From Candidatus Omnitrophota bacterium (GTDB lineage: Bacteria; Omnitrophota; Gorgyraeia; Duberdicusellales; 4484-171): a stretch of 64,000 nucleotides of DNA. Positions 1,777 through 62,715 of this stretch are shown here, one piece after another. Below the pieces are notes generated by a model. The model saw nothing but the letters and a program-made list of their open reading frames with translations, was not told where the DNA came from and ran no database searches. The stretch is from contig JBDRAN010000059.1 in NCBI GenBank assembly GCA_043823745.1, positions 9,105 to 73,104 on the forward strand. The letters are read 5' to 3'. Within the stretch, counting starts at the first letter, position 1. Every line of letters begins with the position of its first letter. Both the position numbers and the translations under genes were made by a program.

Positions 1777-3024
1777 ATGAAGAGAGTCGTCATTACAGGC
1801 ATTGGTGTTATTTGCGCCGCCGGAGAGGATAAGGATACTTTTTATAATAATCTTATCGCCGGTAAGCCGTTTGTCGAGCGCGTCGAAAATTTCGACGTGA
1901 GTCTTTTTGTCTCAAAAATCGCTTCGCAAGATTTAGAATTTGACCCGCTTACATTCGGGATCAAAGATCATCTGCGCATGGATCGGTACGTGCAATTTGG
2001 TATCGCCGCGGCAAAGCAGGCGGTCGAAGACGCTCACATTGATTTTAAGAAGATAGATCGTAAACGTTGCGGAGTGATCCTTGCCAACGCAATCTGCGGT
2101 ACGCGTTTTATGGAAGAGGAGTTTTTGCTGGTTACCGAGTGGGGTAAGAAACCGATTGACCCTCGTCGTGGCCGGCCCTATTTGTATGACGCAGCGATGT
2201 TTAATACGCCCAGCGCCGAGGTCGGCGCCATCTACGGTACCCAGGGACTTAATTGTACGGTTTCAACCGGATGCACCGCGGCGACTGATTCACTGGGGTT
2301 TTCATTTGAGCTTATTCGCGAAGGAAAGCAGGATATTATTATCGCCGGAGGAACAGAGGCGCCGGTATGCCCGATTACGTTTGGTGCGTTTGACGTGGTG
2401 AATGTTTTGGCGAAAAATAATGACGAGCCGCATAAAGCGAGCCGCCCGTTTGATAATAAAAGAAACGGTTTTGTTATCTCGGAAGCTGCGGGGATCGTCG
2501 TGCTTGAAGAATTAGAGCATGCCAAAGCACGTGGAGCGCATATCTACGGCGAGCTCGTTGGTTATGGCACCAGCTGTAACGCGTTTCATATGACCGATTT
2601 GCCGGAGGATGGCGAGGCCATGGAGCGTTGCATTAAAGATGCGATCAGGGATGCCGGCATCAAAAACGAAGATATCGACTATATTAATACTCATGGTTCT
2701 TCAACCAGGCAGAATGATGTTTTTGAAACCAACGCCTATAAGGCAGTCTTTGGCGATTACGCCTATAAGCTGCCCATAAGCTCCATTAAATCGATGATTG
2801 GACACCCTTTGGCTGCAGCCAACGCGGTTGAAAGCGTTCTGTGCGCGATGATTTTCGAGAAAGGGGTCTTACCGCCGACTATTAATCAGGAAGAGCCTGA
2901 TCCAAAGTGCGATCTCGATTATATCCCTAACGTAAAACGGGAGCTCATGCCCAGATATATACTTAAAACAAGCAGTGGTTTTTCAGGGATCCATTCATCG
3001 ATAATATTTAAAAAATATAAGTAG
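1777..3024 (+). CDS. Beta-ketoacyl synthase (KS-alpha / FabF-like) with an intact Cys-His-His triad
   Basis: N-terminal ITGIGVI motif; active-site Cys in STGCTAATDS; His motifs INTHGSST and MIGHPLAAANAVE. RBS AAAGGAATAAAATG. Confidence 0.85.
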   Translation: MKRVVITGIGVICAAGEDKDTFYNNLIAGKPFVERVENFDVSLFVSKIASQDLEFDPLTFGIKDHLRMDRYVQFGIAAAKQAVEDAHIDFKKIDRKRCGVILANAICGTRFMEEEFLLVTEWGKKPIDPRRGRPYLYDAAMFNTPSAEVGAIYGTQGLNCTVSTGCTAATDSLGFSFELIREGKQDIIIAGGTEAPVCPITFGAFDVVNVLAKNNDEPHKASRPFDNKRNGFVISEAAGIVVLEELEHAKARGAHIYGELVGYGTSCNAFHMTDLPEDGEAMERCIKDAIRDAGIKNEDIDYINTHGSSTRQNDVFETNAYKAVFGDYAYKLPISSIKSMIGHPLAAANAVESVLCAMIFEKGVLPPTINQEEPDPKCDLDYIPNVKRELMPRYILKTSSGFSGIHSSIIFKKYK

Positions 3025-3125
3025 AAGCGGAACAACGCGGAACGAAACGCGGAAGTACGCAGAAATTCAGCGTAAATCCGCGTAGATATCCGCGGGAATC
3101 CGCTTCTATAAACAAAGAGGTCAAA
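3025..3125. repeat. Intergenic GCGGAA/TTCCGC word cluster with terminal inverted repeat (GAAGCGGAAC...GAATCCGCTTC) between the KS-alpha and KS-beta genes
   Basis: AAGCGGAACAACGCGGAACGAAACGCGGAAGTACGC...CCGCGTAGATATCCGCGGGAATCCGCTTC. Confidence 0.45.
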
Positions 3126-4358
3126 ATGAAAGAACGAGTCGCAATCACCGGTATTGGGGTCGTTTCCCCGGCAGGCTTGAAGAAGGAGACATTTTGGGCG
3201 AATTTAAAGCGCGGCGATTCTTTTATCGATGAAGTAACACGTTTTGACGCGACTCTCTATCCTTCGCGCATCGCAGGTCAGGTCCATGAACTTGACCATT
3301 ACTCGCATCTCCCCAGCCGCCTGGTAAAAAAGATCGATGTTTTTTCTCATATGGCATTGGTTGCCAGCGAACAGGCCCTGCAGGATGCAAAGATCGATTT
3401 GAGTAATGTCGATAAGAAACGCGTCGGGGTGTTTATGGGTAACGCTATCGGCGGCTGGCTCTTTGCCGAAACTGAATTACGCGATATGTACATCGAAGGC
3501 CGGGAGGGTGTTTCTCCGTATATGGCAAGCGCCTGGTTTCCCGCAGCTCCCCAGGGCCAGGTTACTATTTACTATGGTTTCAAGGGTTACAGCAAGACCA
3601 TTGTGGCGGATAAAGCTTCTTCGGCCCTGGCGCTTTGGTATGCGGCAAAAAATATTATTGACGGAAAGAATGATTATATTCTTGCCGGAGGCATGGAGGC
3701 GCCGATTACTCCCTACGCGCTCCTGAGTGCAAATTCCTGTGGTCAGCTTTCAAAGAATAATCTTAATCCCAAGTCTGCCTATAAGCCGTATGATCTATAT
3801 CGCGACGGTTTCGTGCTGGCAGAGGGCGCCGGGATCGTTAATCTTGAAAAAGAAGCCCACGCAAAAAAACGCGGCGTCTATGTGCACGCATTTTTAAAAG
3901 GCGTTGGATTCTCTTCGGACGGGTATCACTACGCGCGCTATAGTCCATCAAGCGAAAGCCTTGAGTATGCTATTAAGACGTGTCTTGATGATGCCGGCTG
4001 GTCAATAAAAGATGTTGATTATATCTGTCTTGATGCTGAGGCGACCGTGATGGGAGACTATCTTGAAACGCAGGCGCTTAAGCATGTATTTGGTAAGGAG
4101 TTAGCCCATATTGCATTGAGCGCCCCCAAAAGCATGTACGGTAATTTGCTGGGTGCCCAAACAGCGCTTGATCTTATCACGACTGTTTATTCAATGAATA
4201 ATAACCTGGTGTTTCCGACAATTAATTACCAGATGCACGACCCCTATTGTGATCTTGATTACACGCCGAACAGTCCACGAACGAAAGAAATTAAAAAAGC
4301 GCTTTTGCTCGCGCGCGGCAGGGGCGGTATTAATGTTGCGTTAGCGGTCGAAAAGTAG
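3126..4358 (+). CDS. Ketosynthase-like protein lacking the catalytic Cys/His residues (KS-beta / chain-length-factor-like partner)
   Basis: KS fold (ITGIGVVSPAG, GGMEAP). The position of the active-site Cys reads VADKASSALA, and both catalytic His motifs are absent (LDAEAT, YGNLLGA). Sits immediately downstream of the KS-alpha gene. Confidence 0.75.
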   Translation: MKERVAITGIGVVSPAGLKKETFWANLKRGDSFIDEVTRFDATLYPSRIAGQVHELDHYSHLPSRLVKKIDVFSHMALVASEQALQDAKIDLSNVDKKRVGVFMGNAIGGWLFAETELRDMYIEGREGVSPYMASAWFPAAPQGQVTIYYGFKGYSKTIVADKASSALALWYAAKNIIDGKNDYILAGGMEAPITPYALLSANSCGQLSKNNLNPKSAYKPYDLYRDGFVLAEGAGIVNLEKEAHAKKRGVYVHAFLKGVGFSSDGYHYARYSPSSESLEYAIKTCLDDAGWSIKDVDYICLDAEATVMGDYLETQALKHVFGKELAHIALSAPKSMYGNLLGAQTALDLITTVYSMNNNLVFPTINYQMHDPYCDLDYTPNSPRTKEIKKALLLARGRGGINVALAVEK

Positions 4359-4367
4359 GGTTATACA

Positions 4368-5150
4368 ATGAAAAAGCTATTTTTTGTTTTACTTTTTTTG
4401 TGCAGTGTCGCATTTGCGGCGCCAATCGATGATGTCGAGAAAGCATTTCAGAAAGGGCTACAATTAGGTAACCAGGGCAACATTGAAGAAGCGCTACAGG
4501 AATTTCAAAAGGTAGTTGCTGCAGATCAAAATAATTTACCAAAAGATTATTATTTTCAAACCGTCAGAGAAGCATATTTTAATATCGGCCTGCTACAATC
4601 AAAAAAGGGTGATTTGCGGGAAGGAAATCAGAGTTACCAGAAGGCATTACGCATAGACCCTAAGCATGCAAAGTCATTGTATTACCTTGCTATTAATTCT
4701 ATTGTAGCCGGAGAGATTGCCCAGGCGGCTACCTATTATAACCAAGCTAAAGCGTTAGGATTTACTAAAGATCCTCAGCAGCCAAGCACTCTTGTCGCTG
4801 ATCCACTCGCCGTCCTCACGCAACGAAGTATAACTATTGATTATCAATCCTATTTCGATCACAACAAACGCGTTATGATAAATGTCGAAGGAAATCCGAT
4901 CGGAGAGAACCAATTGATTCATGATGCCATTGGCGGCATCGAGAGAGTTCTAAAGATTTCTGGATTCGGCTTGTTCTCGCGAGCAACGGTAGAGTATATT
5001 CGAGAGCGAAATAAAACAATCGACATTGAACGGTGGAACGTTCAAGGTGAAGGGTGGGAGAAAACTCTTTGGGTCAAATATGATTTTGCTCCGCCGGCAG
5101 GTTTTCCTTATAAGGTTATGATCGAAGTTTCGGAGATGGAGATTAACTAA
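4368..5150 (+). CDS. Secreted TPR-repeat protein
   Basis: Signal peptide MKKLFFVLLFLCSVAFA-AP; TPR-like repeats (ALQEFQKVV, YFNIGLLQSKKGD, YQKALRIDPKHAKSLYYLAI). Confidence 0.5.
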   Translation: MKKLFFVLLFLCSVAFAAPIDDVEKAFQKGLQLGNQGNIEEALQEFQKVVAADQNNLPKDYYFQTVREAYFNIGLLQSKKGDLREGNQSYQKALRIDPKHAKSLYYLAINSIVAGEIAQAATYYNQAKALGFTKDPQQPSTLVADPLAVLTQRSITIDYQSYFDHNKRVMINVEGNPIGENQLIHDAIGGIERVLKISGFGLFSRATVEYIRERNKTIDIERWNVQGEGWEKTLWVKYDFAPPAGFPYKVMIEVSEMEIN

Positions 5151-5237
5151 AAAGTCTACCATCTTAATCGGGAAGATTATTTCTTTGTATTCTCGATAAT
5201 CATAACTATCTACGACTATTAGAGAGGAGGTAAAGAA

Positions 5238-5471
5238 ATGGCTTTAAACGAGGACGTTGTTAATGCGATAGCAGAGATTCTTGACGTGGACGCGGCAGGA
5301 TTGGCGCAGGATAAGAAGTTATATGATTCTATTGGTGTTGATTCCACGGAAATCGTGGAGCTGACCGTGGCGCTGGGAAAGCGTTTCGGCGTCAAAATCG
5401 CCACCAACGAGATAACAAAATTCTCAACACCCATAGAGATCGCGCAGGTGATTGAGAGTAAAAAACAATGA
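5238..5471 (+). CDS. Acyl carrier protein
   Basis: 77 aa, acidic; phosphopantetheine-attachment motif GVDSTEIVEL; strong RBS GAGGAGG upstream. Confidence 0.8.
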   Translation: MALNEDVVNAIAEILDVDAAGLAQDKKLYDSIGVDSTEIVELTVALGKRFGVKIATNEITKFSTPIEIAQVIESKKQ

Positions 5472-5539
5472 TTACAGCGTTTAGGGGATGATTCTAAAAT
5501 CTCCGGAATCTTTTTATAATCACTGGAATCATAATAATC

Positions 5540-6349
5540 ATGAAAATAATTGACCTCAGTTTGCCCATTGACGATAAAGCTTTCGAGGTACACCACGTTG
5601 CCATTGAGCGGGTGTCTCATAAAGCGGGGGTTGAGAAGTTTAACCGCGTGCTGATGGGGAAAACCTTACGGGGTAGGCTCCAATATCTTCTGGGCAAGCG
5701 CATTGTAAAAAAAGAAGACCTGCCGGATGAAGAATTTCTTTCTCTTGAAGTAGTGCATTCCCCGGTCCATATCGGCACTCATCTTGATTATTCATTTCAT
5801 TACGGTTCACAGTCAGAAAATCGTCCATCGAAAACCGCCGAGGAAATACCGCTTGAGTGGTGCTACCAGCGGGGCGTCAGGCTTGACTTGACCCATAAAA
5901 AGCCCAATGAGGTAATTACCGCGATTGACCTTGAGGCCGCACTTGGAAAAATTAATTATTCCCTGAAAGCGCTTGATATTGTTCTTTTATATACCGGGGC
6001 GGATAAATTATACGGCGGACCGAAATATTTTAGTGATTACCCGGGTGTGGATATCTCAGCTATTGATTATCTCCTTGATCACGAAGTTAAGATTTTCGGC
6101 GTGGATACGATGGGCATTGACCGGCCCTATCGTTTTATGCTTGGTGAGTTCCTTAAATCAAAGGATTCTAAGAAATTATACCCGGCGCATTTTTATGGCC
6201 GCATTCGCGAGTTCATCCATATAGAACGTTTAGCGAATTTGGAAAAATTACCTGATTCAGGTTTTATGGTCAACTGTTTTCCGGTGAAGATCAAGAATAC
6301 GGGTGCAGCCTGGGCAAGGGTGGTTGCGTTTATTGATAACGATAGGTAA
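5540..6349 (+). CDS. Cyclase-family protein (PF04199; kynurenine-formamidase / polyketide-cyclase-like metal hydrolase fold)
   Basis: H-x-G-T-H-x-D signature VHSPVHIGTHLDYSFHYG; length ~270 aa, typical of the family. Confidence 0.7.
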   Translation: MKIIDLSLPIDDKAFEVHHVAIERVSHKAGVEKFNRVLMGKTLRGRLQYLLGKRIVKKEDLPDEEFLSLEVVHSPVHIGTHLDYSFHYGSQSENRPSKTAEEIPLEWCYQRGVRLDLTHKKPNEVITAIDLEAALGKINYSLKALDIVLLYTGADKLYGGPKYFSDYPGVDISAIDYLLDHEVKIFGVDTMGIDRPYRFMLGEFLKSKDSKKLYPAHFYGRIREFIHIERLANLEKLPDSGFMVNCFPVKIKNTGAAWARVVAFIDNDR

Positions 6350-6430
6350 TCCCGTTTCGCGGCTTACGCCAAAATTATCATGCTTGCAAAGTAAGCGCGA
6401 TAATTTTGACGCGCTCAACGGGATAATTCT

Positions 6431-6519
6431 CCCCATTTTGCACCCGATAAGGTCTCTCGCAATTTCCTCACCGCAGGGCGGCGAGAAATTGCGAAAATAT
6501 CAATAGAGGCAAAATGGGG
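6431..6519. repeat. Copy A of a ~95-bp nested-palindrome intergenic element. Outer stem CCCCATTTTGC/GCAAAATGGGG; inner stem TCGCAATTTCC/GGAAATTGCGA.
   Basis: Near-identical copies at 8820-8915 and, inverted, at 11450-11546. Each lies just downstream of a stop codon. Confidence 0.7.
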
Positions 6520-6713
6520 ATCATTGAGGTGCAGTGGTGGGCGCGCGCGGCGGCACTATGGGGCAAATAATGTGTTACGTATCCCGACTCGCCTAAATAT
6601 TGGTGAAATTTTCAAAGAAAATTTCACTCAAAGCTCGTCGGGATAATTTGCACTATTATTTTTTCTACGCGCATATGCGCTTGAAAAAATAATGTGCGCA
6701 TTAGGAGGTGCAC

Positions 6714-7154
6714 ATGGGTCATACGGTTAATTCGATTGTTATTAACGCTCCTTATGAAAAGATATTCGATATCTCAAACGATATCACCCGTTGGACGGAA
6801 CTTTTTGGAGGAGAATATAAAAAAGCAGAAGTTGTAAAGAAGGAAGATAACAAGATCACGTTTAGGCTTACTGATGATGAAGGCAGGAGCTGGCAGTCTT
6901 GGCGGCTTTTATTAAAAGAAAAATATCTTGCCTACGCCGAAAGAGAGGAACCGAAGTTCCCCTTCAAGTTTATGAAAATTATCTGGCTTTATACCGAGCG
7001 TCCCACCGGCATTGAGATGACCTGGATCCAGCATTTTGAAATGGATGAGAAAGCAAAGTTTAACGACGAACAAGTTGAAGGTTTTATTAATAAGCATTCC
7101 AAGGATAACCTGAAAATATTTAAGGAAGTTATCGAGAGAGAATCACAGAAATAA
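6714..7154 (+). CDS. SRPBCC-family protein (polyketide cyclase/dehydrase-like, Polyketide_cyc2 fold)
   Basis: ~147 aa with an N-terminal VNSIVINAPYEKIFDISNDITRW pattern typical of the START/Bet v1-like polyketide cyclase family. RBS AGGAGG 9 nt upstream of ATG 6714. Confidence 0.6.
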   Translation: MGHTVNSIVINAPYEKIFDISNDITRWTELFGGEYKKAEVVKKEDNKITFRLTDDEGRSWQSWRLLLKEKYLAYAEREEPKFPFKFMKIIWLYTERPTGIEMTWIQHFEMDEKAKFNDEQVEGFINKHSKDNLKIFKEVIERESQK

Positions 7155-7226
7155 TGCAGTATCACGTCGCACGTAACAGGTAACACGTTCTCAAAACCTG
7201 ATACGTGTTGCTTATTACTTGATACA

Positions 7227-8351
7227 ATGAAAAAACTTACTTTTATTATCCTTTGTCTTGAAGGCGCGATTCTTTCGTTTAACGTGGCGGCAGCCGCGGC
7301 TTTGATCCCTTCCATCGCGCGCGATTTCGGAGTGCCCGCGGTTACGCTAGGCTCGATTGTCTGGCTTTATATGATACCGTATGGTCTCGCGGCTCTTGCC
7401 TATGGGCCCCTGGTGCGCGTATTCGATGCCAAGCGCGTGGAGCTGGTGTGTTTCTTTTTCTTCTCGGTGGCGAATCTTATGGCGGCATTTTCGCGCACCC
7501 TGGTAAGTCTTTCGGTCGCGCGGTTCTTGATGGGCGCTTTTGGAGCCTCAGTTATACCGCTTGTTCTTATTCTGATCGCGCGTCATACCGAGAGCGCCTG
7601 GCGCGGGAAGCTCGTGGGTACTTTTTTTAGCGCGACATTTGTGGCATCGCTGGTTGGCCTTCTTTTAAGCGGCGTTCTGCATTGGCGCCTGATTTTTCTT
7701 ATTCCGGCGATTGCCGGATTTTTGCTTCTGGTGTGCATGGCGGTTTTTCTGCCGCGCTTTGCGCCTGAGGCTTCGCATCAAAAGAGTAATTATAAGGCGA
7801 CTCTTGCCGATACGCGGGTACTGAAGTTTTTTACCTATATATTCTTGATTAGTTTCTTATATCATGGTGTTCAGCAATGGCTCGGCGTTTATTTTAGCGT
7901 CCGTTATGGTCTTTCTCAAATGCTGGTCAGCGCCCTGGTGACCTTGACCAGCTTAAGCGGTATCTTTGGAGAGGTCATCGGCGGGTGGTTCTCTGATAGT
8001 GTAGGTAGAATTCTTACCGCAAATGTAGGTATTGTTCTCATGGTGGCCAGTTGCGCGCTGCTTGTTTTTAAAATGCCTTTTGTTGCGCTTAGTGTGCTTA
8101 TGATTGTCTGGGGACTCGGTTGGACACTCAATCATGCCGGCATATCAACGATACTTACGGATTTGCCGCGTGAGTTTTTAAACGAAGCAGCGAGTTTAAA
8201 TAGCGGTGTACGTTTTCTTTCAGGGGGCCTGGGGATGTTTCTGGGGGGCATCGTGATGCAGAAAAGCTTTATCTTAGGGTTTTCTGTCGCGGCTGTTTTG
8301 CTGGCGGCTTTATTGCTATTTTCTAAACGACTAACTAAAGCCATCGCATGA
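7227..8351 (+). CDS. MFS transporter (probable efflux pump)
   Basis: 374 aa, ~12 predicted hydrophobic helices; MFS-like motif GPLVRVFDAKR between TM2 and TM3. Confidence 0.75.
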   Translation: MKKLTFIILCLEGAILSFNVAAAAALIPSIARDFGVPAVTLGSIVWLYMIPYGLAALAYGPLVRVFDAKRVELVCFFFFSVANLMAAFSRTLVSLSVARFLMGAFGASVIPLVLILIARHTESAWRGKLVGTFFSATFVASLVGLLLSGVLHWRLIFLIPAIAGFLLLVCMAVFLPRFAPEASHQKSNYKATLADTRVLKFFTYIFLISFLYHGVQQWLGVYFSVRYGLSQMLVSALVTLTSLSGIFGEVIGGWFSDSVGRILTANVGIVLMVASCALLVFKMPFVALSVLMIVWGLGWTLNHAGISTILTDLPREFLNEAASLNSGVRFLSGGLGMFLGGIVMQKSFILGFSVAAVLLAALLLFSKRLTKAIA

Positions 8352-8755
8352 GCTTGTACGAACTTTTTTTCGCAGGGAGTCTATGCGTATTTTTATTATT
8401 ATCGCACGTACCAGCTGCGCGCGCTCAGAATCCTGCGGAGCCGGCTCTTAAATTTTTTGTCGTTAATTGTGATGAGAAGCTTACGTGGATTGATTCTTCA
8501 GGACCGTCGGAAGGCATTATCCGTAAATATTGGCTCGATGACGGAGTATTTGTTGTTGAGTATTTTGTGAAAGCAGATTGCAGCGGCGTTACTTTTTCCG
8601 GAGACTATGAGCTGCGCGATAGCCTTTTGGTGTTAAAGCGTACGGTTGCACAAGATCAAGGCTCGGCGCGATGTGTTTGTGCGCATAGACTTGTGTATGA
8701 GTTTTCAGGGTTGCCTAAACGCGATTACGGTATTGCTATAGAGGCGAAGAGATAA
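8348..8755 (+). CDS. Hypothetical secreted protein
   Basis: Signal peptide (LLLSHVPAARA-QN); no recognisable domain. Start overlaps the MFS stop codon (ATGA). Confidence 0.35.
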   Translation: MSLYELFFAGSLCVFLLLSHVPAARAQNPAEPALKFFVVNCDEKLTWIDSSGPSEGIIRKYWLDDGVFVVEYFVKADCSGVTFSGDYELRDSLLVLKRTVAQDQGSARCVCAHRLVYEFSGLPKRDYGIAIEAKR

Positions 8756-8819
8756 GGGCAAACGAGATAGCAACTTTTCAAGCGACCAAAGGGAGTGCCG
8801 GAAAGGTGCGTAATCGAAT

Positions 8820-8915
8820 GAGTCCCGTTTTTGCACCCGATAGGTTCTCTCGCAATTTCCTGCCGGAGAGAGGCAAGGAAATTGCGAAAATATCAATGGA
8901 GGCAAAAACGGGGTC
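8820..8915. repeat. Copy B of the ~95-bp nested-palindrome element
   Basis: GAGTCCCGTTTTTGCACCCGATAGG...TCGCAATTTCC...GGAAATTGCGAAAATATCAATGGAGGCAAAAACGGGGTC. Confidence 0.7.
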
Positions 8916-8998
8916 AATTCGCGCAGGTGACTTATGAGCGCTTACGTGCGAACGCTTCATACGTCACGCGCTCATTGAATACCTGGCCATATCGGATG

Positions 8999-9064
8999 GG
9001 CCAGTATGCATCTCTATGCAACACCCGGCCGAATTGGAACGGCCAGTATGCATCTCTATGCAAG
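8999..9064. promoter_or_regulatory. Two perfect 23-bp direct repeats, GGCCAGTATGCATCTCTATGCAA, 43 bp apart. Each contains the dyad TGCAT-N4-ATGCA. They lie directly upstream of the SDR gene, so I read them as candidate operator sites.
   Basis: Copies at 8999-9021 and 9042-9064. The second copy ends 4 nt before the RBS AGGAGG of the SDR gene. Confidence 0.45.
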
Positions 9065-9073
9065 GAGGATATA

Positions 9074-9846
9074 TGGTAAATCTTAAAGGAAAAACAGCAA
9101 TTGTAACCGGCGCAAGCCGTGGTATTGGCAAGGCCTTGGCCTGCACTGCCGCAAGCCTTGGTATTAATCTTGGTATCGCCGCGCGCGGTGAGGGGCCTTT
9201 AAAGGAAACCGCCAAAGAGATCGAGAAAAAATATAAGGTACAAGTTGTGGCGGTGCCTTGCGATGTGACTAAACTTTCAGATTTAGAAAATCTGGTTGAA
9301 GAAACCAAGAAGCACTTTGGTTTTATTGATATCCTTATTAATAATGCCGGTGTTTCAAGCCAATATCCGTTCGAGAAGCAACCGATAGAGGATTTAGAGA
9401 GGCTTGCCTACACCAATTATCTTGGGTACGTGCGCCTGATTCGTCTGGTGATCAATGATATGATCGCGCGTAAATCCGGCGCTATCATCAATATGGTTTC
9501 CGGCTCGACTCTGGTTGATCCGGTTCCGCGTAATTTTATCGTGTATAGTTCCTTGAAGGTTGGGTTACGCGCGTTCTGCAAGGGGTTATTCTGGGAGATG
9601 CGCGATCACGGTATTAAGGTTACTTCAATTTTACCCGGCGTTACCGATACCGATTTAACTGGTAAGCTTGCGGAGGTAACGAATGATGCAGGTCGGCTCA
9701 TGACTACCGAGGCAATCGAGAATGCAGTGAAGTTCGCTTTGACGGTCCCGGCAAATGTCTGTCCTTTGGAAATTGCAGTTATCAACCAGCAGACCCCCTG
9801 GACTAAACCGGTGATACCGTTTAAGCAGACGCATCCGGATAAATAG
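9074..9846 (+). CDS. Short-chain dehydrogenase/reductase (ketoreductase-like SDR)
   Basis: TGASRGIGKA cofactor motif, NNAG motif, and catalytic Y-x3-K within YSSLKVGLRAF. The real start is likely ATG 9074 after the AGGAGG RBS, not the longer ORF from 9016. Confidence 0.8.
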
Positions 9847-9980
9847 AGAGATTGTTAATTGGTGATTACATAATAATATATTATCCCGACAGCTAAGCAC
9901 TGCGAAAATTTATACTAAATTTTCTTGTAGCCGTCGGGATGCTTCGCTCCATAGGAATGGGGCTCGCAAGGAGGTTTTAG

Positions 9981-11438
9981 ATGAAGGTTTTATTTGTGCA
10001 ACCAAAAATCGGCGCGTGGGCAACACATGGAACACACTTTGCACCGAATCAGCTGTACGCGCAATGGGGAGCGTATATTCGCGCCAAGGGGTATAGTAAC
10101 CTTGAGGTGTTGGACGCGACGGTTCTCGCTATCGGGCTTGAGCAGATCGGGGAAAAAGTTAAAGAAAAAAATCCCGATGTCGTCGTGCTTGGCGATATGA
10201 TTCATTGTTCTGTCGGTTTTGGCATCATCTGGCATTTTAACCAGGCCGCCGCGCGCGTTAAGCAGGCGCTGCCAAAAGTGAAAGTGGTGATGGGCGGGCT
10301 GTGGTATTCCGCGCTTCCGGTGCAAACGTTAGAGGACAATCCAGCGATTGACTATGTGGTTATGGGAGAGGAAGAATCATTTTTTGATCTCATTGACGCG
10401 CTTGCCAAAGGCAAAAGCACCAAAGATATTGGCGGCGTTACTTCGCGCGTAGACGGCTTGCCCGTAATGGGCCCGCATAGGCCTTTACTGCAGGATTTAG
10501 ATCAGCTGCCGCTTCCGGCGTATGATTTGTTTCCGATGGATAAATATGTGGGGCATACCTTCTGGAAGCCGTTTGTGGAAATGATTACTTCCCGGGGGTG
10601 TCCTTCAGCGTGCACATTCTGCTACGAGTGGGATCAGTATGATCCTCGTTCACCTAATGATTTTTTAACCTGGCGCGCAAAATCTCCGGAGCGTGTTATT
10701 GAGGAGCTCGAGCTCTTGCATAAAATGGGCACGAAAGTCGTTGTTATCCAGGATGATAATTTCAATGTGGATGCTAGCCGCGTTGAGAAGTTTTGTCAGT
10801 TGAAAAAAGCAAAGAATAATCCGATTAAATGGGTGTCGCTCGGCCGCGCCGTTGACTGGGTCAACTGTGAAAAAATATTGCCGCTTATGAAAGAAACCGG
10901 TATGTTTATGGGGGTTTTCGGCATTGAGGTCACCACACCGGAAGAGCTTAAGAAAATAGCCAAAGGTATCACTATCGATCAAATCAAAAAGACCATTGAT
11001 ATTTTGCGTGCGCAAGATATCGCCATCGTCGCGGATATCATGATGGGCTTTGATGAGGACACGGAATATTCGATTAAGCAGCGTTATGAGTTTACCGATG
11101 AAGTTGATCCTGATATTCTGTGGGTCGGGTATGTTACGCCGGCCCCTAATTCTCCTATTTGGCGCCAGAGAGTCAAGCGCGGCGAGATCGATATCAAAAA
11201 GATTGATTTTCTTAAATGGGATTTTCTGCATCCGGTCATGGCAACCCCGCACCTTTCGCTTGAAGATTATGGAAGGCTCGGAGCGTGGTGCATGCGTGAA
11301 TTTTTTTCAAAGCCCGGTAGGATCCAGCGCATTATGACCAGCAACTTCGATCCCTTGGCAAAGCTTTGTTTTGAGGATGTTATGCGCGGGGTAACCAAGT
11401 GGGAAGCCGGCGCGGTGAAGGGAGAGAAGCATATTTAA
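9981..11438 (+). CDS. B12-binding-domain radical SAM protein
   Basis: N-terminal cobalamin-binding-like domain followed by the radical SAM motif SRGCPSACTFCYEW (C-x3-C-x2-C). Confidence 0.8.
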   Translation: MKVLFVQPKIGAWATHGTHFAPNQLYAQWGAYIRAKGYSNLEVLDATVLAIGLEQIGEKVKEKNPDVVVLGDMIHCSVGFGIIWHFNQAAARVKQALPKVKVVMGGLWYSALPVQTLEDNPAIDYVVMGEEESFFDLIDALAKGKSTKDIGGVTSRVDGLPVMGPHRPLLQDLDQLPLPAYDLFPMDKYVGHTFWKPFVEMITSRGCPSACTFCYEWDQYDPRSPNDFLTWRAKSPERVIEELELLHKMGTKVVVIQDDNFNVDASRVEKFCQLKKAKNNPIKWVSLGRAVDWVNCEKILPLMKETGMFMGVFGIEVTTPEELKKIAKGITIDQIKKTIDILRAQDIAIVADIMMGFDEDTEYSIKQRYEFTDEVDPDILWVGYVTPAPNSPIWRQRVKRGEIDIKKIDFLKWDFLHPVMATPHLSLEDYGRLGAWCMREFFSKPGRIQRIMTSNFDPLAKLCFEDVMRGVTKWEAGAVKGEKHI

Positions 11439-11449
11439 TGAGTCCTGTT

Positions 11450-11546
11450 TTTGCCTCAGTTGATTATTTTCGCAATTTCCTGTGCCCCAAAAGCGTAGGA
11501 AATTGCGAGAGAAACTATCGGGTGCAAAAACAGGACGAATTACCCC
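11450..11546. repeat. Copy C (inverted orientation) of the ~95-bp nested-palindrome element
   Basis: The reverse complement matches copies A and B. It starts 12 nt after the radical SAM stop codon. Confidence 0.7.
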
Positions 11547-11590
11547 GGACCACTTTCAAAAAAAATCGAAGAGATTTTTTGAACATGTAG

Positions 11591-12523
11591 GTGGTTCTGG
11601 TTGTATCTTCTCGATTACTAAGCAATTTTAAATCTATGTTGTGTGACGCACATCTTCATTTTATTCCCGAAGAGCTCGCCGGCCACACCTCTTTTTATAA
11701 AGGGGTATGGACGGACAAGGGGAAACTGTACGCTTTTCTTGATGCCCAAGGTATCGAGAGGGCACTCCTGGTGTATCCTTCGACGGATGCTCATTTGAAG
11801 CTTGGAGGGTATGCGCGTGTGTGCCATATGTATAATGCTTCCTGTCTTTCCCTTGCGAAAGAAAACAAGAAGATTATCCCCTCTGCGATTGTCGATATCG
11901 AAAACCTTACCGACATTACTTCTTGCGTTGCGGCGTTGCGTCAGGATGGTTTTCGCGCGATCAGCCTTGCCTCAAGCTACGCCGGCCGGTTCATCATTAA
12001 GGAACTTATACCTCTTTTTGAGGCGGTCGAGAAATATGGACTCGCAATTTTTGTCCACCCGCAAACTATAAACCCCATCGGTTTTGATCGTGTTAATGAT
12101 CCGCTGCTTATGCCGGTGCTTGAGTATAGCTTTGACAGCTCCATGTTTATGGGGCTTTTAATGATGGAGGGGGTTTTAGAAAAATTCGATATCCCTTTTA
12201 TCTTTTCATCATTAGGGGGGGTAATGCCGTTTTTAAAAGAGCGCTTTGACCGCGTCTACGGGATGCTTAGAGCCCGCAGTATCGTGAAAGATTTAGGGAA
12301 AAATCCCTCCGAGGTTCTCAAAAAAGTTTATGTGGATACTTCAAGTGCGTCTCTTGTACACATCAGGCTTGCGATTGAGCTTTTCGGGGAAGATAAAATT
12401 CTCTGGGGTTCTGATTATCCGGTGGCAGGCGATGTGACTGCAAGTATTGCGATGTTTGATGCGCTTGACCCGGCTCTAAAAGAAAAAATTACCGGTAGTA
12501 ACTTTCTGAAGCTTTTTGGTTAA
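11591..12523 (+). CDS. Amidohydrolase-2 family protein (ACMSD / aromatic-acid decarboxylase-like metal-dependent hydrolase)
   Basis: HLHFIP metal-binding His pair near the N-terminus, and a D-x-P motif (WGSDYPV) near the C-terminus, typical of PF04909. The start could instead be the internal Met at 11636. Confidence 0.6.
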   Translation: MVLVVSSRLLSNFKSMLCDAHLHFIPEELAGHTSFYKGVWTDKGKLYAFLDAQGIERALLVYPSTDAHLKLGGYARVCHMYNASCLSLAKENKKIIPSAIVDIENLTDITSCVAALRQDGFRAISLASSYAGRFIIKELIPLFEAVEKYGLAIFVHPQTINPIGFDRVNDPLLMPVLEYSFDSSMFMGLLMMEGVLEKFDIPFIFSSLGGVMPFLKERFDRVYGMLRARSIVKDLGKNPSEVLKKVYVDTSSASLVHIRLAIELFGEDKILWGSDYPVAGDVTASIAMFDALDPALKEKITGSNFLKLFG

Positions 12524-12619
12524 CAGTAACACGTATCACGTACCACGTAACATGTTTTTTATATAGTCAAAAGGCCTGATACCTGCTACGTGTAGCGTGC
12601 TACAGATACGTTTAAATAA
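12524..12619. repeat. CACGT/ACGTG word cluster (TAACACGTATCACGTACCACGTAACATG ... CTGCTACGTGTAGCGTGCTACAG). A related cluster lies at 7155-7226 (ATCACGTCGCACGTAACAGGTAACACGTTC...GATACGTGTTGC).
   Basis: Read directly; shared words ATCACGT, TAACACGT and CACGTAACA in both intergenic regions. Confidence 0.45.
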
Positions 12620-13423
12620 ATGAAAATATATAATAACGGTCAATTAGTCGATAAAGAGGGTATGCTTGAGATTTTTGAACCGGGGTTTCTTTTTGGCTGG
12701 GGAGCTTTTGAGACACTGCGCGCCTACCAGGGAAAGATACCGTTCCTGGCGCAACACATCGCGCGTCTGAACGAAACCTCAAAACATCTTGCGCTTGAGC
12801 TCGTGAGTCTTAACTTCGAAGAAATAATCAAAACGTTATTGCGCGAGAACAATGTGCTCGATGCCTACATACGTATTACCGCGTACAAGAGACGAGAAGG
12901 CACCGGTGTTCTGGTGTATATCGATCAATTCGGTTATTATCCGCAAAGCGTTTACGATAAGGGTTTTCGCGCTATCTTCACGCGCCATCGCCGGGATGCG
13001 GGGAATTATTTTTCAAAGATAAAGGCGCTCAGCTATCTTGAAAATCGCATGGCCTGGCACTCCGCGCAGGCCTCCGGCAATGATGAGGCGCTTATCTTAA
13101 ATAAAGAAGGGTTTTTGGTTGGAGGGTCTCGGAGTAATTTATTCTTGGTACGTAAAAAAGAAGTGCTCACGCCTTCGTTTGCAAATGGTGCGACAAATGG
13201 GATTACGCGTGATATAGTTATGGAATTGGCGCGTCAGATGCATATTGAGGTGCATGAGGCTGAACTTACCCAGGAAGACCTTTTTAGTTGTGATGAAGCT
13301 TTTCTGACTAGCGCTTTACTGGAGGTTATGCCTTTGGTAGAATGTGATGGTGATCCTATCGGTACCGCAAAGCCCGGCCCGGCCACACGTTTATTTTTAG
13401 AAGAATATAGGAAAAGTTTATGA
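12620..13423 (+). CDS. Class IV PLP aminotransferase-fold protein (BCAT / 4-amino-4-deoxychorismate-lyase-like), short form
   Basis: 267 aa with overall fold-type-IV architecture; the PLP-lysine region is near YKGFRAIFTRHRR. The size matches ADC lyase or D-amino-acid aminotransferase. Confidence 0.6.
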   Translation: MKIYNNGQLVDKEGMLEIFEPGFLFGWGAFETLRAYQGKIPFLAQHIARLNETSKHLALELVSLNFEEIIKTLLRENNVLDAYIRITAYKRREGTGVLVYIDQFGYYPQSVYDKGFRAIFTRHRRDAGNYFSKIKALSYLENRMAWHSAQASGNDEALILNKEGFLVGGSRSNLFLVRKKEVLTPSFANGATNGITRDIVMELARQMHIEVHEAELTQEDLFSCDEAFLTSALLEVMPLVECDGDPIGTAKPGPATRLFLEEYRKSL

Positions 13424-14370
13424 CAATGCATGATCTAAAGTTTTCCCCCTTATTCTGTCCCATTCACTTGAAAGCGGATAGTATCGCTATCCTTGATGAG
13501 ACGCTTCTGCCCCATAAAGTCAAATATATTGAAGTCAAAGACTATCGCGCGGCCTGCGATGCTATCAAGGGGATGAAGACTCGCGCGGTCGGACAGGTTA
13601 TTCTTGTTTTTTATACGTTTCTTTTGACCATACGTAAGAACCAGGATAAAAAAGATCTATTGCCTCTTTTAGAAGAGGTGGCGCAGGCAATCAACGCGAC
13701 CCGGCCGACATTATCGTTTAAGTATTTAACCGATATGATTCTGGGTTGGGCCCAAGCCGGGGCGCCCCTCGAGAAAAGTATTCTTGGATTTTTGGAGGGG
13801 CTTAAATACACGCGAATCGAGCAAGCCAAAGAAGCTGCGGCACTACTTTCTGACGGCGATACCATACTCACACATTGTAACATCAGTGGCCTTATGCCTT
13901 TAATTGGCCAGCTTGCCCACGCTGGAAATAAAAAAGTAACTTTCTTTGCTACCGAAACCAGGCCTTATTTGCAAGGTTCCCGGCTTACCGCCTGGGAACT
14001 AAAAGAAGCTGGTTTTGAGGTAATAGTTATTACTGATAACATGGTTGCTCAGGTAATGCATGAAGGAAAGATTGATAAGGTTATTGTGGGGGCAGACCAT
14101 CTTGCTGTGAACGGTGATGTTGCCAATAAGATCGGTACCTATCAAATCGCGATTGTCGCGCGAAACTTCAATATTCCTTTTTACGTGGTTTGCCCACCGG
14201 CTTCACGCGCCAAAAGCGGTAAGGATATTACCATCGAGATACGGCCGGATAAAGAATTGCTTGAGTACCAGGGTCTTCGGCTTGCGCCCAAGGGAGCACG
14301 AGGGTATTATCCGGCGTTTGACGTGACACCGAATGAGCTTATTAGTAAACATATTTATTTTAAAATATAA
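13420..14370 (+). CDS. eIF-2B alpha/beta/delta-family sugar-phosphate isomerase (MtnA / 5-deoxyribose-1-phosphate isomerase-like)
   Basis: 316 aa; conserved C-terminal GADhlavNGdvaNKiGTyqiAi block typical of S-methyl-5-thioribose-1-P isomerase and relatives. Confidence 0.7.
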   Translation: MTMHDLKFSPLFCPIHLKADSIAILDETLLPHKVKYIEVKDYRAACDAIKGMKTRAVGQVILVFYTFLLTIRKNQDKKDLLPLLEEVAQAINATRPTLSFKYLTDMILGWAQAGAPLEKSILGFLEGLKYTRIEQAKEAAALLSDGDTILTHCNISGLMPLIGQLAHAGNKKVTFFATETRPYLQGSRLTAWELKEAGFEVIVITDNMVAQVMHEGKIDKVIVGADHLAVNGDVANKIGTYQIAIVARNFNIPFYVVCPPASRAKSGKDITIEIRPDKELLEYQGLRLAPKGARGYYPAFDVTPNELISKHIYFKI

Positions 14371-14483
14371 CACGATTACCCTGATTTCCGCCACTTTGAT
14401 ATTTTATGTCGGCTGGTCCGCCTCCGGCGGAAGAGAAAGATTGCACAGGTTAATAACGATCTGCGCAAATACAAAAAGGAAAT

Positions 14484-15488
14484 ATGATAATCAATAACAA
14501 CGAAAAAATATTAAAAAAAGAAATAATCAATATTGGTAAAAAATTATATGAGTTGCGCCTTGTGGTTGCGCGCGCGGGAAATTTGAGTGCGCGGCTTGAT
14601 GGAAACACTGTCTTAGTTACTGCGAGCGGTACAAGTTTGGGGAATCTCACCGTAGATGATATTATCCGGATTGACATCCATAATGAGGAGGATGCAAAAA
14701 ATCCCCGTATAACGTCCGAGTTTCCTTTGCATCGTCTCGTGTATAAGAATTTTCCAAACAAAGTAACCATTCATTGCCACCCCACATTGATTAACGCTTA
14801 TTTTGCCCTTTTCTCTGACTTAAAGGCATTGACGTTTGAAACCAAACTTTATGTGGGCACCATTCCGGTTGTCGAGCAAGACACCCCATCAATCACGAAA
14901 CCGCAACTCGTGATTGATGCGTTAAAAATCAGCAATCTGGTTGTTATAAAAAATCATGGCGTGGTTGCAATCGCAGATACATTTAGGGATGCGTTATATG
15001 TAATCGAGACTTTGGAAGAGGCAGTAAAGGTAGCAGCAACTGCTCGTTTATTTAAAAAAGAAATTCTTGATAGTTTAGATACGGAATTAAAAGAAAATTT
15101 TCAAAGTGATTCGGCATTCGTAATGTTTTCAGAAGATCATATTCGCGCTATCGTGGATTTGGTAAATAAAGATGAGCTTATTGCAGCCAAAGGCAAAGAA
15201 TTGGATTTGACGTTAAAGCTGGCCATACAACTTGACGGTCATGACAAAATCTATAAATTTAATTTCGAAAAAGGAACAATCGTCAAATTAGATTTTGATG
15301 CAGATGCTCCCTTTGTGATCTCTGCGCCGACTGATGTTTGGGAATTAATCTTTTTGGGAAAACTTGATCCCTTTGTCGCCACCACACAAGGAAAAATGAA
15401 ATTACAGGGGCACTTAGGCCAGCTGAGCCGCTGGTATGTGCCGTTTACCCGGCTGTTTCAGTTGTTTAAACAAGTAAGAATTAAATAA
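14484..15488 (+). CDS. Class II aldolase/adducin-domain protein (MtnB / fuculose-P aldolase-like) fused to a C-terminal SCP2 sterol-carrier-like domain
   Basis: N-terminal class II aldolase pattern (VARAGNLSARLDG, IHCHPT). The C-terminal ~100 aa carry the SCP2 pattern (ATTQGKMKLQGHLGQLSRW). Confidence 0.65.
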   Translation: MIINNNEKILKKEIINIGKKLYELRLVVARAGNLSARLDGNTVLVTASGTSLGNLTVDDIIRIDIHNEEDAKNPRITSEFPLHRLVYKNFPNKVTIHCHPTLINAYFALFSDLKALTFETKLYVGTIPVVEQDTPSITKPQLVIDALKISNLVVIKNHGVVAIADTFRDALYVIETLEEAVKVAATARLFKKEILDSLDTELKENFQSDSAFVMFSEDHIRAIVDLVNKDELIAAKGKELDLTLKLAIQLDGHDKIYKFNFEKGTIVKLDFDADAPFVISAPTDVWELIFLGKLDPFVATTQGKMKLQGHLGQLSRWYVPFTRLFQLFKQVRIK

Positions 15489-16378: not shown

Positions 16379-16588
16379 TAATCCCGCCGTATAAAGCGAA
16401 GGCGGGATAATGAGTTTAATGATGTTAAGGGGAATAAATAAAATCCGAAGCACGAAATCCGAAATACGAGACAAACCTGAATGTCCGAATTTTCCAAAAT
16501 TCAAAAAGAGTAGTTCTTGTTATTGGTTATCCGTGTTTTGGGAACTTAAACATTGTTTCGGATTTACCTCTTAATAAGGAATAGTTAT

Positions 16589-40470: not shown

Positions 40471-42207
40471 GTGATTTTGGCAAAAGGGATATTGATTAGT
40501 TACGCGGGTTACCCTTACACTCCCTCCAGTCTTCTACCAGATAATGGGTTAGCTAATTTGGCAGGTGCCCTTATTCAGAACGGTCATGAGGTGTTGGTGC
40601 TCGATTATGGAACCGTGGATGTGGTTAAAAGATTGGTGCCAACAGATATCGGCATTGCCTTGAAGGATATATATAACAAGGCCAAGAAAATAAAAGAGAA
40701 AAAAGGTTCTTCCGCGCTCCAGAAAATGTTTCTTTTCCATACATTGCGGCACATTGATAGAGCGCTCACGAAACACCAGAACAATCAGACGTTAATGATG
40801 GCCGAAGAGCTTCTCGATTTAATAAAAGAACAAAAACCCGATTTTGTTGGTTTTAAATTATGGGTCGGAGATGGTTTTGCTGCGTCCGTGAAGATGGCGG
40901 AAATCATAAAAAGAAAGTTTCCGCACATAAAACTGTTTGGCGGCGGGCCATTGTTGGATGAAGCCGAAGAAGTAACCATGGAGGTTGCACCAGTATTTGA
41001 TGCAGTCTCCTTTGCTGAGGGTGAAGAAACTATTGTAGATTTGGCCCTGTACTGTGAGGGCAAGAAAGCCCTATCCGAGATCAGTAATCTTATTTACAAA
41101 ACGGACAAGAAGCGTATTGTTAAAACAGGAAAGAAGATAATAGACGATTTAGATAGTTTGTCCTTACCGGTGTATGACGAAGCCATATATCCTGCGATGA
41201 AAGACGGTCAGAAAATTAAGATAATATTATTAGATGAAAGCAGAGGGTGTCCGTATCGATGTTTTTTTTGCCCCCATGAGCATAAGAGTGGAGGCAAACG
41301 AAGGACTAAATCACCTCAACGGATTTTTCAAGAAATAAAACGTTTGGTCGAATCGTACGGTATCCATGCCTTTCGATATGCCGGTTCATGCACTCCCTTT
41401 GAGACTTTGAACGAGGTAGCCAACAATATTTTAAGTGATAATTTAGACGTACTGTATACTTCATACGCCAACGCAAAACTTGCCGATCTTAATAATCTTG
41501 ATCTACTGAAAAGGAGTGGTCTTCATGCTTTATTCTTTGGGATTGAAACTGGAGACGACAGAATATTGCATGAAATGATGAATAAACGAATGGTTTCTGT
41601 AGAACTGATAAAAAATAAAGTGCAGGGCGCCATTGAAAAGGGCATCTTTTGTGTCGGGAGCGTAATCTTTCCCGCACCAGGAGAAACTCCTCAGACTCGA
41701 GATAAATTATTGGGTGTGCTTAAGGAAATATATACGCATGAGGAGAGTGGCTCTGTGCAAGTTCAATTTCCGGGACTTTTTACGGGAACTGAGTGGTATA
41801 GAAACACAGCAAAATTCGGATTTAAAATAAAAAATCAGAAGACCTATAAACGGGATATGCTTAATTATAAAATAAAACTGCTTTTTCCTCCGACCTTCTG
41901 GAAACCCCTGCCGTATACTATCGATGGAAAGGGTTACAAACAGTTTGCTAAGGAAACAGAAAAGTTCGCTAATGAATTAGAAAAAAGTAATATTTTAACT
42001 CTGGTTACCGATGAAATGGCTCTTTCGGCGCGTTTACTTGGGGTAACCCCAAAACAGTATAGAGATCGTTCCCGGCTTCAACTACTGACTGGAGACTGGG
42101 AGAGTATTTCGAGAGATGTTCAGACAATAAATCGCGGTATAACGAGTGACGAGCAGTTAAGAATCAATATTCGGCATTCAAACTTCCAAGGGTCTGATAA
42201 CACATGA
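40471..42207 (+). CDS. B12-binding-domain radical SAM protein
   Basis: N-terminal B12-binding-like domain; radical SAM motif ESRGCPYRCFFCPHEH. Confidence 0.8.
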   Translation: MILAKGILISYAGYPYTPSSLLPDNGLANLAGALIQNGHEVLVLDYGTVDVVKRLVPTDIGIALKDIYNKAKKIKEKKGSSALQKMFLFHTLRHIDRALTKHQNNQTLMMAEELLDLIKEQKPDFVGFKLWVGDGFAASVKMAEIIKRKFPHIKLFGGGPLLDEAEEVTMEVAPVFDAVSFAEGEETIVDLALYCEGKKALSEISNLIYKTDKKRIVKTGKKIIDDLDSLSLPVYDEAIYPAMKDGQKIKIILLDESRGCPYRCFFCPHEHKSGGKRRTKSPQRIFQEIKRLVESYGIHAFRYAGSCTPFETLNEVANNILSDNLDVLYTSYANAKLADLNNLDLLKRSGLHALFFGIETGDDRILHEMMNKRMVSVELIKNKVQGAIEKGIFCVGSVIFPAPGETPQTRDKLLGVLKEIYTHEESGSVQVQFPGLFTGTEWYRNTAKFGFKIKNQKTYKRDMLNYKIKLLFPPTFWKPLPYTIDGKGYKQFAKETEKFANELEKSNILTLVTDEMALSARLLGVTPKQYRDRSRLQLLTGDWESISRDVQTINRGITSDEQLRINIRHSNFQGSDNT

Positions 42208-55828: not shown

Positions 55829-55830
55829 TT

Positions 55831-55917
55831 GCTGCAAGCCGCAGGCTTCAAGCTAAAAAAGTAAAACCGGTAGCGGCGTCTATAGCCTGTAGCATGCAGC
55901 TTGTAGCTTGAAGCAGA
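55831..55917. repeat. ~85-bp intergenic element GCTGCAAGCCGCAGGCTTCAAGCT...GCATGCAGCTTGTAGCTTGAAGCA with internal dyad symmetry (GGCTTCAAGC/GCTTGAAGC). A second copy lies at 62639-62706.
   Basis: Both copies lie immediately upstream of a start codon (smc and queA). Confidence 0.55.
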
Positions 55918-55924
55918 CAACAAT

Positions 55925-62417: not shown

Positions 62418-62638
62418 AAAAATCAGGTTGCGTCTATGGGTTGAGAGGCTCGTAGCGGTTATGTCAATCGTTAATCGTCTTGATGCTTAAATAGTGTTTT
62501 TGACGCAACCGTTATACGTGTAACGGGCGAGCTACGCAACCCCAAGGACGTTTGACAAGATCATACGATGTACGTATATCTTAATGAATACACTTATGGC
62601 TTTGCGTTTTTGGTTTATCTGGTAGAATAACGAATTAT

Positions 62639-62706
62639 GCTGCAAGCCTCAGGCTTCAAGCTCTAAATCCCGCTTTTGTAATTTTGCAGCTTGTAGCCTG
62701 CAGCCG
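62639..62706. repeat. Second copy of the GCTGCAAGCC-YCAGGCTTCAAGCT...CAGCTTGTAGC element
   Basis: GCTGCAAGCCTCAGGCTTCAAGCTCTAAATCCCGCTTTTGTAATTTTGCAGCTTGTAGCCTGCAGCC, ending 9 nt before the queA ATG. Confidence 0.55.
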
Positions 62707-62715
62707 CCACTAATC

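Follow-up and report, generated by a model that had tools for sequence, protein, structure and literature searches.

The bacterial interspersed mosaic elements (BIMEs) of E. coli are bound by IHF or gyrase in that species. ERIC/IRU elements, found in enterobacteria, are imperfect palindromes of ~110-127 bp that lie between the genes of operons in either orientation, and their sequence is conserved across species while their locations differ; effects of ERIC on mRNA have been shown in Yersinia. These elements are reportedly the subject of Hulton et al. 1991, Sharples & Lloyd 1990 and De Gregorio et al. 2005. REPINs are doublets of repetitive extragenic palindromic (REP) sequences, which form hairpins and are mobilised by RAYT transposases (Bertels & Rainey 2011, PMC3116915), and the GTAG/CGTC superfamilies of REPs are palindromic and extragenic, with an unpaired tag at one end (Di Nocera et al. 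2013, PMC3733652). Here, we analysed a stretch of 64,000 nt from Ca. Omnitrophota (JBDRAN010000059.1, hereafter the window), and more precisely a palindromic element of ~110 bp, named F1, which is present in three copies in its polyketide synthase (PKS) locus. We show that F1 has multiplied and moved: its six copies lie between genes, at non-orthologous positions of two genomes, and relatives have none at the orthologous junctions. The F1 family is real and previously undescribed, and is part of a superfamily of nested hairpin repeats that is specific to this Omnitrophota lineage; we found no description of Ca. Omnitrophota repeat content in the literature. Our preferred explanation, which we regard as probable though well short of certain, is that the F1 copies are palindromic repeats of the REPIN/ERIC/MITE kind (MITE, miniature inverted-repeat transposable element), non-coding and non-autonomous, which are mobilised in trans and arranged in BIME-like mosaics.

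The three copies in the window were delimited by a covariance model, which places copy A at 6418-6530 on the + strand (112 bits), copy B at 8811-8923 on the + strand (118 bits) and copy C, inverted, at 11433-11547 on the - strand (120 bits). These limits are wider than the unrefined ones (6425-6525 and 8815-8921 on the + strand, and 11436-11545 inverted). The earlier note, made from the sequence alone, had reported three copies within the PKS locus, and they do exist there; the start given for C, 11450, is ~12 nt too far in. The inner-stem motif TCGCAATTTCC/GGAAATTGCGA and two arm probes recover only these copies, far above the shuffle expectation: eight matches to the motif at no more than one mismatch are found in the window, versus 2.4 expected (0 of 100 shuffles reach eight), and the arm probes match three sites only, with 0.07-0.25 expected. 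No fourth copy was found in the 64-kb window by motif scan, covariance model or arm probes, and the latter revealed no solo arm there. When the tip is left aside, the cores of the window copies are 80-90% identical, and their MAFFT alignment has a mean column identity of 81%.

F1 is built as a series of nested parts. Its outermost parts are short linkers (TAATTCG ... CTCATTA), followed by an outer stem of 12-13 bp, TCCCGTTTTTGC/GCAAAAACGGGA, which is paired in all copies and covaries; by an asymmetric, conserved internal loop in which ACCCGATAGGTTCTC faces AAAATATCAATGGAG; and by an invariant inner stem of 11-12 bp, with the sequence of the motif given above. The tip, of 14-20 nt, differs in sequence in each copy (12-62% identity between copies, mostly ~30%, i.e., roughly the random level) and forms a short G+C-rich self-pairing stem in all six. 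Seen as a whole, the two arms are imperfect inverted repeats of 46 nt, 76% complementary. In copy A, the outer stem is CCCCATTTTGC/GCAAAATGGGG, the inner stem is located at 6457-6467/6484-6494 and the tip reads CACCGCAGGGCGGCGAG; in copy B, the outer stem is TCCCGTTTTTGC/GCAAAAACGGGG and the inner stem lies at 8850-8860/8877-8887; in copy C, the inner stem is at 11470-11480/11498-11508. We also considered the tips as guides; elsewhere in the window, the three tips find no match longer than expected by chance.

The folding of F1 was examined copy by copy and on the alignment. The three window copies fold as nested hairpins on either strand, with energies of -42 to -52 kcal/mol using RNA parameters and z scores of -6 to -9, and DNA folding parameters yield the same architecture. 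The shared stems around a variable loop that had been pointed out earlier are thus found as nested hairpins in all copies, with compensatory changes. RNAalifold predicts two helices on the six copies, in which 96.8% of the pair cells are standard pairs, versus 36-58% when the partners are slid, and double compensatory changes are observed at four pairs of the outer stem, the inner helix being invariant. This covariation, drawn from six related sequences, is supportive of the predicted structure and not conclusive. Wobble pairs give no single direction, those of the outer stem favouring one orientation and those of the inner-stem extension favouring the other. As for a coding capacity, only some of the copies keep the reading frames across F1 open, and the peptide of the F1 open reading frame (ORF) has no relative in a 5.8-billion-protein search aimed at mis-called genes over further copies. 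With neither a conserved frame nor a homologue of the peptide, F1 is considered non-coding, which fits the earlier proposal that the ORFs over these sites are spurious.

In the window, the three copies lie shortly after stop codons, the distance from stop codon to outer stem being 81 nt for A (cyclase stop codon, 6349), 62 nt for B (stop of a 135-aa ORF, 8755) and 0 nt for C, which begins at the TAA stop (11436-11438) of the B12-radical SAM gene. ATGAGTCC opens copies B (8818) and C (11438), as had been noticed; it is found at the start of both because the ends are palindromic and C is inverted, so it is a by-product. The genes near the copies, namely those of a cyclase, a polyketide cyclase, a major facilitator superfamily (MFS) transporter, the 135-aa ORF, a short-chain dehydrogenase/reductase (SDR), the B12-radical SAM protein and an amidohydrolase, are mutually unrelated, which excludes a segmental duplication. 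The mechanical ORF starts (9016-9846 and 11591-12523) lie too far upstream, comparison with relatives indicating 9073 for the SDR and 11636 for the amidohydrolase; with these corrected starts, the true spacers are 317 and 197 bp.

An exact-pattern scan covering one genome per species, in 185,579 species, retrieved three further copies, all in a single related metagenome-assembled genome (MAG), Ca. Omnitrophota STA_84 (JAQTOI01, GCA_028713415.1), on three contigs. One of them lies 130 nt after a stop codon, between pyrR and a small protein gene, and beyond the terminator-like hairpin of the latter; another is upstream of a gene for a small secreted-type protein, 72 nt from its start codon; and the last, among small ORFs, ends 10 nt short of the start codon of an ORF of 160 aa. 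Hence, the position just after stop codons, described in the earlier note, holds for the window and is not general. Relative to transcription, four copies have the same direction and two the opposite one, and those with known neighbours are all located between co-directional genes. Several other searches were negative: the metagenome scan with the inner-stem pattern gave 0 matches, F1 was not matched in viral contigs, and blastn found it neither in plasmids and phages nor, at word size 11, in 5,426 E. coli genomes, so that there is no ERIC-type similarity. Rfam 15 gave 0 matches at the gathering score over the window; below threshold, F1 is matched only by hairpins of microRNA precursors (28 bits versus a gathering score of 117).

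The absence of F1 from orthologous junctions was established in relatives of the operon. The radical SAM protein of the window has hundreds of close Omnitrophota homologues, from which eleven syntenic loci were fetched, representing eight lineages at 87-92% protein identity, with one of them a contig of STA_84 and with same-lineage duplicate contigs (L006/L007, L010/L011, L013/L014 and L015/L016). The covariance model detects no F1 copy in the syntenic loci L004-L011 and L013-L016. These loci come from different species, not strains, and exact empty sites are not alignable base by base. The junction between cyclase and polyketide cyclase is 17 bp long in L005 and L006 versus 358 bp in the window, and the 135-aa ORF and SDR genes overlap in these two relatives versus a spacer of 317 bp in the window. 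Because the same junctions are devoid of F1 in relatives, and shorter in some of them, F1 was added in the lineage of the window. The orthologous fragment of STA_84 likewise has no F1 at its MFS-SDR-radical SAM junctions. This contig, L009, was considered as a possible assembly break at a repeat; it has ~4x coverage and stops at the position of copy C, ~18 nt before the stop codon.

We then compared the divergence of F1 with that of the two genomes. Three genes were compared at their fourfold-degenerate sites, where the window and STA_84 agree at 37-44% of positions, i.e., near saturation. F1 cores, on the other hand, are 80-93% identical across all 15 pairwise comparisons, and cross-genome pairs (copy B and its counterpart in L002, 93%; copy C and its counterpart in L003, 90%) are as close as pairs within the window. 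With neutral sites near saturation and cores so similar, the arms are held constant either by exchange between lineages or by selection, be it for a host role or for mobilisation.

F1 is also found in mosaics with other hairpin families, the second of which was named F2 and the third F3. F2 corresponds to TCCCG...CGGGAT(T/A)AATTCG with an inner A/T-rich hairpin, and has in common with F1 the TCCCG/CGGGA stem feet and the flanking linkers. In the window, an F2 hairpin at 6350-6423 (+; TCCCG...CGGGATAATTC) directly abuts the left end of F1 copy A, and a degenerate F2-like module at ~11543-11600 (-) abuts copy C; F2 is also found at 6582-6643 (+), where no F1 is attached, upstream of the radical SAM gene at 9884-9939 (+; by eye the F2 copy nearest to L003 2706-2761 in alignment), and in a short form at 16382-16407 (-), which resembles L001 1826-1853. 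F2 is present in L010 as well as in L001 and L003. In four of the six copies, F1 adjoins the 3' foot of F2 in a fixed relative orientation, which suggests either a target preference for hairpin feet or movement as a composite unit. Copy B is joined to a module of ~60 nt (8917-8979, +), and together they form a 188-nt unit that is 83% identical to L002 7734-7920 of STA_84, where the gene context is unrelated. Copy C and its F2-like module align with L003 over 141 nt at 81%, their tips being 62% identical. Subfamilies of F1, together with their adjoining modules, are therefore common to both genomes. The F3 hairpin (6650-6697, +; GCACTA-TTATTTTTT...AAAAAATAA-TGTGC) is located immediately 5' of a ribosome-binding site, and in L005 and L010, F3 relatives precede the radical SAM gene, again immediately 5' of ribosome-binding sites. 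The F2 foot (GATAAT) was also examined as a promoter, an idea that was rejected since it is wrongly spaced from any -35-like hexamer.

These features can be set against the described systems. F1 resembles ERIC/IRU elements in the size of its palindrome, its location in operon spacers, its presence in either orientation and its conserved sequence at differing sites, and differs from them in its unrelated sequence and phylum, its hypervariable self-pairing tip and its junction with other hairpin modules. With the BIMEs of E. coli it shares the mosaic of hairpin units joined by short conserved linkers in fixed orientation (F2-TAATTCG-F1, or F1 with the 60-nt module), although its units are much longer nested hairpins. 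The likeness to REPINs concerns the conserved inverted arms, the less conserved spacer whose length and pairing are kept, the compensatory changes and the hairpin of ~100 nt, as well as the extragenic location, the persistence at differing sites of related genomes and the clusters and mosaics (PMC3116915). Unlike REPINs, F1 has a low observed copy number, arms that are not obvious short REP palindromes, neither a GTAG nor a CGTC tag as a constant feature, and no similarity to E. coli repeats; moreover, a REPIN has a cognate single-copy RAYT gene (a Y1 HUH transposase) flanked by its repeats, and no RAYT is known for F1. Like GTAG/CGTC REPs, F1 lies mostly between co-directional genes, in families that are species-specific or shared and whose units pair into larger structures, but its tag is inconsistent and its unit is about three times the length of a REP (PMC3733652).

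We propose that F1 is a trans-mobilised repeat, which agrees with the MITE/REP/BIME-type reading given at the outset: F1 is dispersed in a second genome and absent from the orthologous junctions of relatives, its stems are kept and it forms mosaics with F2. A transposase encoded elsewhere in the genome would recognise the conserved arms and make or move the copies. At the tip and in the outer stem, it is pairing that is kept and not sequence, so that movement would most likely involve a folded single strand, as has been proposed for IS200/IS605 elements and for REPINs with RAYT. Once within an operon, F1 would presumably be co-transcribed and give a very stable RNA hairpin in either orientation, and its putative effects on mRNA processing or stability would then be a by-product. 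The earlier note had considered its reading overturned if the element were unique to three sites and did not fold, or if the copies derived from a local duplication including flanking coding sequence; instead, further copies and a conserved fold were found, and the flanking coding sequences are unrelated.

Several observations weigh against this explanation. Families of REPs or REPINs usually number tens to hundreds of copies, while the observed count of F1 is low, with three copies in 64 kb, all within 5 kb, and three exact-pattern matches in STA_84. No transposase, RAYT or integrase domain was found in the 53 non-overlapping ORFs of at least 90 aa of the window. A scan of metagenome contigs with the left arm alone gave one chance match inside coding sequence, and neither a family member nor a full-length insertion sequence. 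The target-site duplications that were looked for at the suggestion of the earlier note are not visible, as no direct repeat occurs at any candidate boundary; the flanks TAATTCG/CTCATTA are conserved parts of the neighbouring modules, which makes the true ends of F1 uncertain. The left junctions of the six copies read TTCTCC, GAGTCC, TTCGTC, TTCCCC, TTGTCC and TTCGCC, so that the GTAG tag is found in none of them, CGTC is found solely in copy C, and there is no consistent tag. The conserved, unpaired segments of the internal loop could equally reflect a host function. Finally, stable hairpins (z < -3.5) are concentrated in one operon of the window, where they occupy eight of 10 spacers, versus two of 23 elsewhere (Fisher p = 1.3e-4).

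This operon (1777-15488), of the type II polyketide/B12-radical SAM type, encodes a ketosynthase (KS) and chain-length factor (CLF), an acyl carrier protein, the cyclase, the polyketide cyclase, the MFS transporter, the SDR, the B12-radical SAM protein and the amidohydrolase, plus a class IV aminotransferase, an IF-2B/MtnA-like protein and a class II aldolase. It is syntenic among the Omnitrophota relatives sampled. Further B12-radical SAM genes are found in the window at 40471-42207, 42718-43989 and 49034-50506.

The rival explanation that survives best, and which we nonetheless consider unlikely, is that the host has selected F1 to punctuate polycistronic transcripts, either as an RNA hairpin acting in cis or as an RNA or DNA site to which a protein binds. 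F1 could then block 3' exonucleases, serve as a processing site for RNase III or RNase E, or be a partial terminator, with the internal loops as recognition site; the putative role of transcript stabiliser or terminator suggested in the earlier note would be of this kind. This explanation is compatible with mobility, copying then merely carrying F1 to new junctions. The concentration of stable hairpins in operon junctions speaks for it, as do the co-directional genes around all copies with known neighbours, and the 80-93% conservation of the core, unpaired loops included, despite saturated neutral sites. The tip, which keeps its pairing and is free in sequence, is also reminiscent of the peripheral helices of functional RNAs. 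Most of the relatives, too, have a long hairpin after the radical SAM gene.

On the contrary, both orientations of F1 occur, two of the six copies being opposite to transcription, and the 47 spacers examined have no sense/antisense bias of stability or G-U content (26 versus 21, p = 0.34). A consensus scan found no terminator made of a G+C stem and a T-run at A, B or C, the outer stems being followed by TCATT or CGAATT, and no Rfam family was recovered. Moreover, in L015/L016, whose radical SAM protein is 87% identical, the operon is compact, its genes overlap and hairpins are absent, and the orthologous fragment of STA_84 does without F1 at the MFS-SDR-radical SAM junctions. In other relatives, hairpins of unrelated sequence are found at the same operon junctions, and in L013 one hairpin family occupies four of them. 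Since one lineage has no hairpins and others have other families, these hairpins are dispensable and lineage-specific. A more ambitious proposal, which we advance as speculation and judge rather doubtful, is that the clade runs a domesticated hairpin-installation system, in which interchangeable palindromes (F1, F2, F3 and quasi-repeat hairpins) would be placed preferentially at the junctions of particular operons and the conserved internal loops of F1 recognised by a dedicated protein, the elements thus punctuating or tuning polycistronic expression rather than being merely selfish.

Quite unlikely, in our opinion, is the idea that F1 is a classical MITE, whose arms of ~46 nt would be the terminal inverted repeats of a DDE insertion sequence and whose copies would be internally deleted forms of it, moved by the full-length element. 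The imperfect inverted repeats, 76% complementary around a variable centre, the conservation of the arms across genomes, as expected of transposase-binding ends, and the variation of presence and absence between lineages are in keeping with it. Like the MITEs Correia/NEMIS of Neisseria and RUP of Streptococcus pneumoniae, F1 is small and non-coding, has inverted-repeat ends, and lies between genes as a hairpin that would be co-transcribed. Unlike them, it has no visible target-site duplication, whether TA or another, and a parent insertion sequence was not found, just as the window holds no transposase, and neither the window nor the left-arm metagenome scan yielded a solo arm or a full-length element. 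Above all, the centres are uniform in length (~14-20 nt) and self-complementary in every case, a result that independent deletions would not give and that is atypical of MITEs.

It is very improbable that the copies are operator-like DNA sites for a regulator specific to the polyketide operon: the three window copies do lie inside 5 kb of one biosynthetic operon, with none in the other 59 kb, but in STA_84 the neighbouring genes are unrelated (pyrR and those of small hypothetical proteins), the operon of the sampled relatives has no F1, and 110 bp with a hypervariable centre are unlike an operator. Integron attC-like sites at the 3' ends of gene cassettes, which F1 resembles superficially by its position shortly after stops and its imperfect palindrome with a variable centre, can be set aside almost entirely, together with a local segmental duplication, the genes forming a conserved syntenic operon and not cassettes, copy C being inverted, the ends having no RYYYAAC or GTTRRRY core sites, the window encoding no integrase and the flanking coding sequences being mutually unrelated.

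Other hairpins were recorded along the way. Long near-perfect hairpins are located at gene junctions of the polyketide operon, in the window at 1653-1776, 3025-3125, 7155-7226 and 12524-12619, and in relatives at L004 11459-11580, L005 11459-11555, L006 11441-11521, L008 2826-2906, L009 146-235 and L010 9004-9101, as well as at 450-574, 1805-1924, 3308-3416 and 5652-5765 in L013. Their arms consist of tandem quasi-repeats of 7-11 nt (e.g., CACGTAAC, CAGAAGT, GATAGCA and GGTTWCTTRA), the sequence family differing per lineage. One hairpin, GCGGAA/ATCCGCG, is similar, by eye only, between the window (3025-3105), L008 (1279-1367) and L009 (2152-2255), and is located between KS and CLF in the window and upstream of the radical SAM gene in the two relatives. 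Just upstream of the SDR ribosome-binding site, a 42-nt unit is tandemly duplicated (8978-9061, 83% identical); each unit contains the small palindromes TGGCC...GGCCA and TGCAT...ATGCA, and the duplication could be an operator or another hairpin element. Farther away, a related hairpin repeat, TGCTGCAAGCC.CAGGCTTCAAGC ... GCAGCTTGTAGC, is found at 55830-55924, upstream of an SMC-family gene, and at 62638-62714, upstream of queA. The SMC-family gene (55925-60949, 1674 aa) carries an intein with a LAGLIDADG homing endonuclease (Pfam Intein_splicing and LAGLIDADG_3).

In conclusion, F1 explains the spurious ORFs and the unusually long spacers of a conserved operon in Ca. Omnitrophota, an uncultured phylum. 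With R1, the model of its sequence and structure, such repeats can be flagged in the annotation of MAGs and in the analysis of assembly breaks, and F1 is a possible typing marker within the clade. The contrast between saturated neutral sites and conserved cores provides a case outside the Proteobacteria for the debate on repeat populations that, like REPINs, persist and are inherited vertically. Finally, different hairpin families at the same junctions, along with one compact lineage, offer a natural comparison between selfish and useful hairpins.

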